A DNA stretch of 64,000 nucleotides, taken from NCBI GenBank assembly GCA_963760795.1, contig CAVXEP010000016.1, positions 160,395 through 224,394 on the forward strand, given 5' to 3'. This DNA comes from an uncultured delta proteobacterium. Its GTDB lineage: Bacteria > Desulfobacterota > Binatia > UBA9968. A program made the position numbers and the translations under genes. The notes beneath the pieces were generated by a model. It saw only the letters and a list, made by a program, of their open reading frames with translations, was not told the DNA's origin and ran no database searches. Below are positions 42,882 through 60,801 of the stretch, one piece after another; the stretch's first letter is position 1, and every line of letters starts with the position of its first letter.

Positions 42882-43184
42882 CTCACCACGAAGAACACGA
42901 AGTTCGGAATAACCAGCCTCCGAAACCTTCGTGTCCTGCGTCAGATCCTTCGAAAATACTTGTGAGAGGATGATATGTACAACGAAGAGCCTCCGGTGTT
43001 CCGTCATACCCGCGAAAGCGGGTATCCAGGCCCATCATCCGCCTGGATACCGTTTTTCAACGGTATGACGGACAGTGTCCGTCACCTGGATTCCCGCGTG
43101 CGCGGGAATGACGAATCGAGGAGGGAGCAGAGCCATTTTCATGCTTGTAGGCGAGCGCGAGCTCATGGACACTTCGAGGTGAAA
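42882..43184. repeat. CACCACGAAG-family element interrupted by an insertion containing the GTCAT composite
   Basis: TCACCACGAAGAACACGAAG...CCTTCGTGTCC [insert] CTTCGAGGTGAA. Confidence 0.5.
43003..43112 (-). repeat. ~110-bp composite GTCAT-hairpin element (copy 2, best preserved)
   Basis: Reverse complement reads GTCATTCCCGCGCACGCGGGAATCCAGGTGACGGACACTGTCCGTCATACCGTTGAAAAACGGTATCCAGGCGGATGATGGGCCTGGATACCCGCTTTCGCGGGTATGAC. Confidence 0.85.
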
Positions 43185-56916: not shown

Positions 56917-57030
56917 GTCCTGCCGGTGAAAACCGGTAGGGAATCTAGGTGATGGACAACGTCCGTCATACCGTTGAAAAACGGTATCCAGGTGGTGATG
57001 GGTGTGGATTCCGGCCTCCGCCGGAATGAC
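56917..57030 (+). repeat. ~110-bp composite GTCAT-hairpin element (copy 3)
   Basis: Contains GTCCGTCATACCGTTGAAAAACGGTATCCAGG, identical to copy 2. Confidence 0.82.
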
Positions 57031-58057: not shown

Positions 58058-58080
58058 CAGATATCGGAATTACCAGCCCC

Positions 58081-58161
58081 GTCATGCCGGTGAAGACCGG
58101 CATCCATCTTCGCATTCGCTGGACCAGAATCAGCCTGGATTCCGGCCTACGCCGGAATGAC
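58081..58161. repeat. inverted pair of GTCAT hairpins (REPIN-like)
   Basis: GTCATGCCGGTGAAGACCGGCATCCA ... TGGATTCCGGCCTACGCCGGAATGAC between convergent genes. Confidence 0.85.
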
Positions 58162-58223
58162 GGAAATAGAAATTAATCCGCTGGCGAGAAGTTTTTGATT
58201 CCCGACTTTGAGTCGATAGCTGT

Positions 58224-59333
58224 TCACTGGGCTTGCGCGCCATTCAGTCCAAACATCCGCATCGCGTTGCCGCCCAAAACCTTTTCCTTGTCGGTTGCCG
58301 ATAAAGACTTCATCTGCTTGATCACGTCGACGGTGCGCGGCCAGGTGGCGACGGCGTCGCCGTGGTCGAAATCGCTGCCAATAATAATATTGTGGTTGGG
58401 CCAGCCGTTGACGGTGTCGGCGATGTAGGTTTCCCAGGAAACGCAGGCGATGAAGAACTGATCGAAGTACTGGCTGGGCATTTTTTTGATGGCATTTTTG
58501 CCTTCGAAAAACTGTTGGACAGAAACGGAAACCCGATCGTCATTCGGCATATGGGCGTCGAGTGTGTGCATGAGCCAAGGCACCCAACCGATACCGCCTT
58601 CGAAGAAACCGAACTTTAACGTCGGGAAACGATCGAGCACGCCGCCGAAGATCAATCGCGACGCGCTGACCATGTAAGTGAGCGGAAAGCCCAGGGCTGT
58701 GGGAAAATGTTGATAGCCTTGAAAGCGCTCGCTGCCGACCAGCCACGGGTGGCTGTGTTGGGCTTCGTACACACGCGCCGCTGGATGGAGCAGAATGGGA
58801 ATATTCAAATCGGCGATTTCTTCGTAAAGCGGATAGAGCACTTCACTATCCAAGTCGCCGTCGCCCCAGCCGCCGTTGAACTTCACCGCTTTCAGACCAA
58901 GCTCCTTCACTGCGCGGCGCAGTTCTTTCACGGATTCCTTGATGTCCGGCAAATAAATCCAGGCGCAGCCGATGAAACGATCGTCGCCCTGAATGTCCTC
59001 GGCCACCGTGTCGTTGTAGGCTCGCGCTAGCTGGCGCCCGAGTTCGGCATCGCACTCGTAGATCAGCGGCCGGTTGTCGGGAATCAAGACCTGCTTGTCG
59101 AAACCGTCTTTTTTCATGAACTCGGCGCGCAGCGCAATGCTCCAGCGCCCTTCTTTGAAGGAGTGAACTTTCTTGCCGTCGCGGTAATAGGTCGCCACCT
59201 TGCCCGGCACCACTTCGCCGTAGCGCACCATGTCGCCCTTGTCCTCGACCACTTCGAGATGGCCCTTGCCGGGGTGTTTCACCTTGTCGATAAAGCGCAG
59301 CGGCCAATAGTGGGTATCGCCGTCGATGTACAT
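58224..59333 (-). CDS. amidohydrolase-2 family protein
   Basis: IDGDTH, ARAYND, LLHP, GVLDRFPTLK, FEGGIGW, GSDFDH. Confidence 0.88.
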   Translation of the reverse strand: MYIDGDTHYWPLRFIDKVKHPGKGHLEVVEDKGDMVRYGEVVPGKVATYYRDGKKVHSFKEGRWSIALRAEFMKKDGFDKQVLIPDNRPLIYECDAELGRQLARAYNDTVAEDIQGDDRFIGCAWIYLPDIKESVKELRRAVKELGLKAVKFNGGWGDGDLDSEVLYPLYEEIADLNIPILLHPAARVYEAQHSHPWLVGSERFQGYQHFPTALGFPLTYMVSASRLIFGGVLDRFPTLKFGFFEGGIGWVPWLMHTLDAHMPNDDRVSVSVQQFFEGKNAIKKMPSQYFDQFFIACVSWETYIADTVNGWPNHNIIIGSDFDHGDAVATWPRTVDVIKQMKSLSATDKEKVLGGNAMRMFGLNGAQAQ

Positions 59334-59374
59334 GGAACCTCCTTCACGCACCTGATTGCAGCCATCCCCGGCCT

Positions 59375-59717
59375 GTCATTTCGACCGCAGGGAGAAATCT
59401 AGATCGCATTGCTCAGATCATTCCAATGAGGATTGAGCTGTATGACCAAGGCGTTTTTCTTTTCTCTGCGCCATTTTTTGATCTCTTTTTCCCGAGTCAG
59501 AGCGGTGAATACGTCGTTAGTCTGTTCGCGTAAACGAGCTTGTTGACGTTGAATTTCTCTGTGAAACCTTTCACTAACTTGTTCTGGTGTTCGTAAACAC
59601 GCCTTGTGAGGTTATTGGTTACACCAACGTACATGACTTTATTGTTCGAACTGGTCAGCAAATAGACGTAGTAGCAGTTCTCTGCCGGCATAGATTTCTC
59701 GCTGCGCTCGAAATGAC
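59375..59717. mobile_element. putative GIY-YIG nuclease element bounded by 26-bp inverted GTCAT hairpins
   Basis: Left GTCATTTCGACCGCAGGGAGAAATCT (59375-59400) and right reverse complement GTCATTTCGAGCGCAGCGAGAAATCT (59692-59717) directly abut the ORF. Confidence 0.65.
59399..59691 (-). CDS. GIY-YIG nuclease (UPF0213/YhbQ-like), 1-bp deletion near 59529
   Basis: YYVYLL...MYVGVTNNLTRRVYEH...GFTEKFNVNKLVY, continuing in a shifted frame as EQTNDVFTALTREKEIKKWRREKKNALVIQLNPHWNDL; ~97 aa; AT-richer than flanks. Confidence 0.88.
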
Positions 59718-59744
59718 AAAACGGAAGATTCTACCTCTACGTCG

Positions 59745-59770
59745 AGATCCCTCACTTCGTTCGGGATGAC
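59745..59770 (-). repeat. third GTCAT hairpin of the GIY-YIG-flanking subtype
   Basis: Reverse complement GTCATCCCGAACGAAGTGAGGGATCT. Confidence 0.8.
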
Positions 59771-59787
59771 GACTGCTACCGCCGCCG

Positions 59788-60801
59788 TCATTTCACTCCA
59801 TACTTGGTCATAATCTCATCGATAAACCCGCTCTGGTCGAGCTTCTTCATGATTCGGTCGTCGATGAGATTTTCCGGTTTTACGCTCTCGACTTTTGGGT
59901 TGCTGCGCTTCATCAGGCGGATGACATTGGTCGCACCCGCCGGGAGGGCGTAGGGTTTACGGTCGAGACCGGTGACCATATCGCGATAGCCTTCCTCTGC
60001 GTCCTTCTCCGAGATGCGCAGGTACTTTTGCAGAATCTTCAGTGTGTTAGGTTTCTGCGCGGCTGATAGGCAAAAGGCCGAGCCTTCGATCACCGCGCGC
60101 AAAACGTTCTCGACGATCTGCGGGTTTTTTTGCAGGTAAGTATCCCGAACGACGATCGAAGAGCTCAAGATCGGCAATCGGGCTTTATCGAGCTCGGCCA
60201 AGATAGGAAATCCCCTCGCCTGCAAAGGTCGACTCTGCACACCGTCGAGCACGGTCGCATCGATGGTGCCGTTGGCGAGAGCTTGCGCAAGCACAGTTTG
60301 ATCTCCCGCCGCGATGATAGCGATCTTGTCCCGTTCCGGTTCGAGACCAAGGTGTTCGAGCGCGAGGATCGCACCCATCCACACCGTGCCGCCGATGGCT
60401 TGCACGCCGAATGTTTTGCCGCGCAGATCTTCGGGTGATTTTATGCCAGGACGGACGACGAGGTCGTAGGTAACGCGGTTGGTCAGCGCCGATAAAACTT
60501 TTAGATCGGCACCGGACGCTACCGCGCCGATGACCGCGGTGCCGCCGGTGTAACCGACTTCGATATCGTTGGAGGCCATGGCGGCGACCAAGGTCGGCGC
60601 GCCGCGCACGAAGAGCGTTTCAGCGTCAAACCCGTACTTGGCGAAAAAGCCGCGTTCGCGCGGCGCCCACAGCGGGCATACCCGCGCGTTCATGGCGGCA
60701 TAGGCGATGATGAGTTTCTTACCGGCTGCCGCGGCGAAAACATCTTCTGGAGCGCTCAGTAAACCGAGCACTAAGACGATTGTCAGGATCAAACTCGTCA
60801 T
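59788..60801 (-). CDS. ABC-type substrate-binding protein (NMT1/SsuA-like)
   Basis: Signal peptide, ERGFFAKYG, DLRGK, LDQSGFID. Confidence 0.86.
   Translation of the reverse strand: MTSLILTIVLVLGLLSAPEDVFAAAAGKKLIIAYAAMNARVCPLWAPRERGFFAKYGFDAETLFVRGAPTLVAAMASNDIEVGYTGGTAVIGAVASGADLKVLSALTNRVTYDLVVRPGIKSPEDLRGKTFGVQAIGGTVWMGAILALEHLGLEPERDKIAIIAAGDQTVLAQALANGTIDATVLDGVQSRPLQARGFPILAELDKARLPILSSSIVVRDTYLQKNPQIVENVLRAVIEGSAFCLSAAQKPNTLKILQKYLRISEKDAEEGYRDMVTGLDRKPYALPAGATNVIRLMKRSNPKVESVKPENLIDDRIMKKLDQSGFIDEIMTKYGVK

Follow-up and report, generated by a model that had tools for sequence, protein, structure and literature searches.

Organization of the Locus

The window analyzed here, i.e., the whole stretch of 64,000 nt (G000:C16:160395-224394, with G000 denoting the source genome), contains the gene of a small GIY-YIG nuclease enclosed by hairpin repeats and situated between two host genes (Table 1). 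Domain search identifies the latter as encoding an NMT1-type substrate-binding protein (SBP) and an Amidohydro_2 protein, in agreement with the context given in the preliminary description of this DNA.

Table 1. Features of the nuclease locus (positions in the window).
Feature	Position	Strand	Remarks
Amidohydro_2 gene	58224-59351	-	Downstream host gene, context
Hairpin L	59375-59400	+	Downstream of the gene, inverted; inner stem CC/GG; tag outward; overlaps the stop codon
GIY-YIG gene, assigned to the Ssn family	59399-59691	-	One base short near 59529
Hairpin R	59692-59717	-	Upstream of the gene; tag outward; abuts ATG; inner stem GC/GC, GCA loop
Hairpin T	59745-59770	-	Tandem with R; outer stem TCCC/GGGA, inner stem AC/GT
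Short palindrome TGAC...GTCA	59767-59790	-	Spans from the SBP stop codon to the tag of hairpin T
NMT1/SsuA-like SBP gene	59788-60801	-	Upstream host gene, context

Hairpins L, R, and T share a 26-bp architecture: a GTC tag, a 5-bp stem, GA facing GA, a 2-bp stem, a 3-nt loop, and a C following the stem. Two positions distinguish L from R, and these pair with each other (C–G versus G–C in the inner stem); in T, both the outer and the inner stem are altered, with pairing retained. The pairing in each copy bears out the compensatory differences and the covariation noted earlier, and the same holds for the repeat coordinates, for the 343-bp repeat–ORF–repeat unit from L to R, and for its junctions: the nuclease ATG at 59691 adjoins the ATCT of R, and the stop codon (59399-59401) overlaps L. 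The nuclease ORF is indeed AT-richer than its neighbors (GC content 43% versus 57% in both flanking genes), and, as reported before, no target duplication is visible at the locus.

Hairpin T occupies the same position in orthologous sites that are filled and in those that have only repeats; hence, T belongs to the cassette. TGAC at the SBP stop codon is seen, by eye, in all seven filled or remnant sites with this end visible and in none of 12 empty ones, and the palindrome that contains it is probably the outer edge of the occupied allele.

The GA/GA-type hairpin is present in the window in three copies, all at the nuclease locus. Eight more GTCA-tagged hairpins (at 43002-43113, 48763, 56965-57030, and 58080-58162) lack the GA/GA bulge; seven of these represent the NTS type with its perfect stem, and the hairpin at 48763 matches weakly. 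The earlier remark that such palindromes are frequent in the window thus applies to GTCA-tagged hairpins generally, but not to the bulged type. The NTS-type hairpins at 43002-43113, 56965-57030, and 58080-58162 include some tags-outward doublets, and hairpins of this type are probably partners of the classic SsnA-type gene found elsewhere in G000.

The Nuclease Gene

The nuclease gene spans 293 nt and is not the open frame of about 97 codons assumed in the preliminary description, which hinted at a missing base only among its suggested checks: the frame shifts near 59529, and the product as assembled has 64 amino acids (59691-59497), as compared to 97 in intact orthologs (e.g., L022:2533-2826 of G013). 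Consistently, tblastn finds the gene as two pieces, with the second half in another frame. Pfam identifies GIY-YIG (PF01541) as the sole domain of the 64-aa product (E 5e-12). At the level of families, NCBIfam yields no match for the locus protein; Atlas look-ups return generic GIY-YIG clusters that do not separate the groups considered below; and a PDB sequence search with the 64-aa query finds weak Slx1 chains only (E 0.04-0.4) and no solved Ssn structure.

The published criterion for Ssn homologs is a tblastn E-value below 1e-10 over more than 75% of the query (Chenal et al., 2025; PMC11893778). As a proxy for the N. meningitidis query used there, we took N. gonorrhoeae SsnA (locus L001). 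With this proxy, two pieces of the locus gene are recovered that together cover residues 5-89 of the 94 in the query at E 3e-11, i.e., within both limits, although by a narrow margin in the E-value. The locus nuclease is 43-48% identical to N. gonorrhoeae SsnA (45% for an intact ortholog), and in the alignment Y10, Y21, and E68 of the locus read-through face SsnA residues Y6, Y17, and E64, which have counterparts in the intact ortholog as well. The catalytic Glu lies past the frameshift and is therefore absent from the 64-aa product as assembled.

In a midpoint-rooted tree of 52 sequences, from which 15 broken or partial ones were omitted and which includes no named outgroup or UPF0213 protein, 41 sequences (group A and SsnA) are separated from 11 distant small GIY-YIG proteins with support 100/100. 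Classic SsnA proteins (group B) form a tight group (99/99), while group A, not resolved as a single clade, may represent a grade basal to group B. Judging by the homology criterion and the tree, we assign the locus gene to the published Ssn (cd10448-type) family; the label "UPF0213-type" used earlier is not the closest one, as the protein groups with SsnA. The dN/dS ratio is 0.05-0.07 in four of 21 pairs, with dS saturated in the other 17, showing past long purifying selection on the nuclease gene.

The Bulged Repeat in the Source Genome

A strict structural search of G000 yields 54 copies of the bulged hairpin, and a looser one yields 105 sites, 11 of them within long ORFs. A pattern that ignores pairing has 77 matches, compared to about three expected from the base composition, and each of the six stem positions is paired in 61-76 of these 77 matches; hence, the repeat is not a product of chance, and stem pairing is selected. 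The most common inner pairs are G–C (27), C–G (20), and A–T (10), and some G–T pairs occur. The stem variants seen in L, R, and T are genome-wide subfamilies. Of the earlier claim based on compensatory stems, selection on pairing is upheld, but not a change private to this locus; similarly, the GNA triloop is the usual one (52 of the 77 matches), but not invariant.

Among pairs of bulged hairpins within 150 nt of each other, 21 have tags outward (HH), five have tags inward (TT), and one is tandem. All 21 tags-outward doublets are gene-less, and in 13 of them the spacer is 7 nt long. Of 62 repeats located between co-directional genes, 27 have the tag on the mRNA strand and 35 on the template strand; this absence of a strand bias favors a role at the DNA level. 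Folding of the 25-nt repeats with DNA parameters is weak, -1.9 to -2.6 kcal/mol, with almost no asymmetry between the strands, as compared to -4 to -7 kcal/mol with RNA parameters (versus about -2 with DNA ones). The folding energies lend no support to the sheared GA pairs proposed previously, a claim that stands on covariation and on general knowledge of the chemistry of such pairs.

The published SRM pattern occurs in G000 at 128 sites, with 33-39 expected from Markov controls, but matches none of L, R, and T, each of which would require two to three substitutions. The repeats do show the features of CGTC-tagged REPs, that is, an unpaired CGTC or TGTC tag, a stem of 8-9 bp starting from AT, a short tail, dispersal, and mostly HH arrangement; viewed in this way, the stem of the locus repeat contains two mismatches. 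On these sequence features, we classify the locus repeats as CGTC-type REPs.

A RAYT-like Y1 transposase was considered as the partner of the repeats and rejected: G000 has three Y1 matches, and neither repeat type lies within 900 nt of any of them. Nor did any other enzyme turn up next to the repeats.

Association of Nuclease Groups With Repeat Types

The host genus was surveyed in 31 genomes, 26 of which have a homolog; a locus was taken for every place of a match, groups were assigned by hand from protein similarity, and one unrelated locus was excluded from the group counts. Repeat classes in the genus were defined once the flanks had been viewed. Of the 26 group-A loci, 23 carry the bulged hairpin on one or both sides (12 on both), and two have SRM within 500 nt. 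Group B (classic SsnA, also 26 loci) never has the bulged hairpin and has SRM in 23 cases; the perfect-stem NTS type is seen at 26/26 loci (at 23 on both sides), as scored with a loose detector without a chance control. Groups C and D (11 loci) show other hairpin types in 11/11 cases and SRM in none. For comparison, among all 4,797 ORFs of G000 the bulged hairpin flanks 113 on one side and one on both sides.

The independent test is confined to the metagenomic set, for which the pattern was fixed beforehand; the homologs are kin, so the counts are not statistically independent. Among the best 80 of 252 metagenomic relatives, the bulged hairpin is found upstream in 65/80, downstream in 63/77, and on both sides in 54/77, mostly with tags outward (62 upstream in the sense and 54 downstream in the antisense orientation), while SRM within 500 nt is found in 0/80. 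Two checks suggested earlier, enrichment of flanking hairpins (54/77 versus 1/4797 for both sides) and agreement between nuclease and repeat groupings (23/26 in group A versus 0/26 in group B), have thus turned out positive, and the repeat type sorts by nuclease group within the host genus. The openly accessible literature yielded no description of a pairing between the bulged hairpin and an Ssn branch (figures in PMC11893778 and PMC3733652 may show the type) and no report of REP spread driven by GIY-YIG proteins or of follow-up work beyond PMC11893778. What appears to be new here is an Ssn branch paired with a GA/GA-bulged hairpin that is missed by the SRM pattern.

Several further loci deserve mention. 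G000 carries an intact classic SsnA-type gene (L112, G000:C16:258-548) that shares 57% identity with N. gonorrhoeae SsnA. An NTS-type repeat lies upstream of this gene, and the downstream repeat is truncated by what looks, by eye, like an insertion-sequence end and a transposase start. The second group-A gene of this genome (L060, G000:C13:143416-143688) has two internal stops and is flanked by bulged hairpins. A distant small GIY-YIG gene (L111, G000:C7:135472-135741) reaches E 2e-9 to SsnA, which is below the Ssn criterion; together with L101-L106 and L108 it has a CCGTTCG-tagged inverted hairpin with a GA/GA bulge of its own, on at least one side in 8/8 cases, and SRM in 0/8. Loci L074, L075, and L109 form a nested subgroup of the distant genes (99/100) with a fourth hairpin type, starting with CCCCGAGTAG. 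In L187 and L188, part of a hairpin repeat replaces a mid-gene stretch of the nuclease in frame, and nested repeats are seen upstream of L139 and at L177, with a hairpin in the loop of another one and a C-type repeat inside an A-type loop. A Planktothrix plasmid (L193, NZ_LR882964.1:18847-19131) carries a group-A-like gene with arrays of bulged hairpins, located between a type IIL restriction–modification gene and DISARM drmA.

History and Decay of the Site

The orthologous site was surveyed in 24 loci of genus-mates, 21 of which are informative. Six carry the gene (G000, G019, G013, G002, G022, and G023); two have repeats only (G024 and G016, with T, a degenerate R, and L, and the gene absent); and 13 are empty, containing unrelated sequence, often with other palindromes, one of these being seen from one side only. 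Empty sites, whose existence in relatives had been suggested as a check, are therefore common, but a clean pre-insertion allele is not among them. Four empty alleles from scattered genomes (L028, L030, L035, and L036) share a palindromic element of about 130 nt in the SBP–amidohydrolase gap; the slot seems to swap occupants.

The occupied alleles are not monophyletic either in the amidohydrolase tree (20 sequences, four changes, p-AU 9e-09) or in the SBP tree (16 sequences, four changes, p-AU 5e-36). The four nuclease proteins from the site that are present in the genus tree form one clade (100/97). These trees are consistent with a single old insertion and subsequent losses or allele exchange, and not with repeated fresh insertion.

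The nearest relatives of the locus gene, 92-96% identical to it, are broken elsewhere in the gene: L166 (96%) has another frameshift, and L116 and L181 have a stop codon. At the site itself, the copies of G019 and G023 are broken by indels, and of ten metagenomic copies placed there by eye, six are intact, one is cut by a contig end, and three are broken. The frameshift in G000 is probably real decay. An assembly error, with the gene intact in the cell, is a weaker but serious contender: the rest of the nuclease gene shows no decay, soil contigs contain the missing base in two of four runs, and about eight of 48 gene matches of G000 show a frame change relative to relatives (a rough count with some double and spurious cases). 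These soil contigs, however, come from strains other than the source; the break lies outside a homopolymer and is accompanied by a substitution; and the breakage of the 92-96% relatives at other positions indicates that real decay is common in the sub-lineage.

Interpretation

We interpret the locus, with a probability of about 0.85, as a recently broken nuclease gene of the Ssn (cd10448-type) family amid its cognate CGTC-type repeats, belonging to a branch with a GA/GA-mismatch repeat. This Ssn-system reading is supported by the SsnA criterion, the union with SsnA in the tree (100/100), the tag and C determinants, and the flanking statistics. The proposal that nuclease and repeats are partners has held up well, as the enrichment, the sorting of repeat types, and the empty sites all agree; what had been taken for a new analogous system is the published Ssn/SRM system, for which the REP/RAYT analogy has also been proposed already (Chenal et al., 2025).

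If the locus enzyme acts as Neisseria SsnA does, the intact protein would bind the GTC-tagged strand in its single-stranded, folded hairpin form and hydrolyze it at a point a few bases to the 5' side of the tag. With tags pointing outward, a single cut would be expected on each strand immediately beyond the unit, at about 59370 on the plus strand and about 59722 on the minus strand. These cuts, combined with host recombination repair, might occasionally move the cassette and seed gene-less doublets. The cassette at this site would be old, inherited or recombined among genus-mates, and now decaying in the sub-lineage of G000. An earlier suggestion of a nickase acting on cruciforms does not agree with the characterized Ssn enzymes, which cleave ssDNA and do not cleave dsDNA (PMC11893778). 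Mobilization of the repeats by the nuclease is plausible as a hypothesis, but neither a clean empty site nor a target duplication was found.

Alternatively, in line with the preliminary description, the repeat–ORF–repeat unit might be a self-sufficient minimal transposon, with the GIY-YIG protein moving both the unit and the doublets, as RAYTs do with REPINs. The best 80 of 252 homologs fall into 54 neighborhood clusters and the 26 group-A loci of the genus into seven; L139 and L145 share 97% identity in the gene and no relationship in either flank; and the gene-less doublets with their preferred 7-nt spacer, as well as the dispersed placement of occupied sites in both host-gene trees (p-AU 9e-09 and 5e-36), point in the same direction. 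Yet the informative sites include no clean pre-insertion allele, target duplication was sought and not found, the identity of the locus gene to other Ssn-like copies of G000 is no more than 45-49%, the single clade of four proteins from the site (100/97) fits one old insertion, and the L139/L145 similarity extends about 20 nt past the tag, so that the edge may not coincide with the repeats. GIY-YIG enzymes hydrolyze DNA, with no strand-transfer or joining step known to us, which also argues against autonomous transposition, and the inverted ends would place the predicted cuts on opposite strands, unlike the peel-and-paste of IS200/IS605; with cuts on opposite strands outside each end, movement would need host repair. 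On balance, we regard a self-sufficient transposon as rather unlikely. Similarly doubtful is a domesticated host nuclease that, as in Neisseria, uses the repeats as sites for restriction of ssDNA that is incoming or displaced, with the repeats spread by other means and the gene located among them for regulation or hitch-hiking. In N. meningitidis, transformation by DNA with NTS is reduced by SsnA (PMC11893778), the gene was under long purifying selection at a fixed site, and 26/31 genomes of the genus have a homolog, but the gene is frequently and independently broken (at different places in G000, G019, G023, L116/L181, and L166), its sites vary across the genus, and the search next to the repeats turned up no other enzyme. 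Domestication is compatible with our preferred reading of a broken Ssn-family gene amid cognate repeats and differs from it only in who spreads the repeats.

Quite another explanation would make the hairpins RNA terminators or stabilizers, with an incidental link to the gene. Their greater stability with RNA than with DNA parameters and the occasional G–T pairs agree with it; however, neither strand is preferred (27 versus 35 of 62), a T tail is absent, and the repeat type tracks the nuclease group. As the main explanation, a role in RNA is largely refuted and very improbable, while a secondary one is compatible with the data. The boldest possibility, which we put forward tentatively and consider less than likely, is that small GIY-YIG nucleases are the missing mobilizers of CGTC REPs, with a hairpin code for each lineage and with the 343-bp unit as the minimal mobile element. 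The codes would be the perfect stem (SsnA), the GA/GA bulge (group A), and two types in the distant group that fails the SsnA criterion; the unit would spread itself and the gene-less doublets through ssDNA cutting plus host repair.

While the system has been published and the copy at this locus is probably dead, a large Ssn branch, having a hairpin of another build, escapes the SRM pattern, so that the link between Ssn genes and repeats has been undercounted. The bulged-hairpin branch is a candidate for an ssDNA cutting specificity of its own, with possible use as a tool. A single genus contains three to four nuclease–repeat pairs together, along with a site whose alleles may be filled, repeats-only, or empty, and is a good comparative set for studying what spreads CGTC-tagged REPs.

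Comparison With Known Systems

Stand-alone GIY-YIG proteins such as UPF0213/YhbQ and Slx1-like ones have the same fold and belong to the same size class. The similarity of the locus protein to them is weak (Slx1 chains at E 0.04-0.4), whereas it groups with SsnA. RAYTs are HUH tyrosine enzymes acting through a covalent intermediate, while GIY-YIG enzymes are hydrolytic. REPtrons combine a GTAG tag with a Y1 enzyme (Di Nocera et al., 2013; PMC3733652), the locus a GTC tag with a GIY-YIG one. The likeness of the locus to REPtrons lies in a nuclease gene amid inverted hairpins, gene-less doublets with fixed spacing, and no target duplication.

A comparable GA/GA bulge is present in certain CGTC repeats of alphaproteobacteria. 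CGTC-tagged REPs have been cataloged mostly as tags-outward dimers, with no transposase found according to the text of that study (Di Nocera et al., 2013). The locus repeats resemble them in the CGTC/TGTC tag, the stem opening with AT, the unpaired tail, the compensatory subfamilies, and the HH heterodimers, and when taken as an 8-bp stem with a 5-nt loop they have the geometry of CGTC-2; pruning of the catalog removed single repeats with more than one stem mismatch (PMC3733652), and the locus repeat has two.

The Ssn family (cd10448) comprises single-domain GIY-YIG proteins of about 94-95 amino acids, whose genes are flanked by GTC-tagged hairpin repeats of 20-50 nt; 71% of homologs have SRM on one side and 42% on both (Chenal et al., 2025; PMC11893778). 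With SRM at 71% of homologs, a match to this pattern is no condition of Ssn membership. SsnA of N. meningitidis binds its hairpin exclusively in the form of ssDNA and cleaves within a few bases on the 5' side; the enzyme depends on the GTC tag and on the C that follows the stem (PMC11893778). The discussion in that paper raises the likeness of the repeat–gene–repeat structure to IS200/IS605 and REPs; spread of the repeats by the nuclease is a hypothesis there, as it is here. The locus differs from this family's characterized members in that its hairpin has the GA/GA mismatch and is one base longer, from the tag to the terminal C, than the NTS oligonucleotide; in that, by the same text, no GA/GA-type repeat accompanied any of the four enzymes assayed; and in that its protein, about 45% identical to SsnA, falls outside the tight SsnA group, with the locus copy frameshifted. 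It resembles them in size, in the catalytic residues as aligned in its read-through, in the inverted GTC-tagged hairpins with a C after the stem, and in the dispersal of these repeats (PMC11893778).
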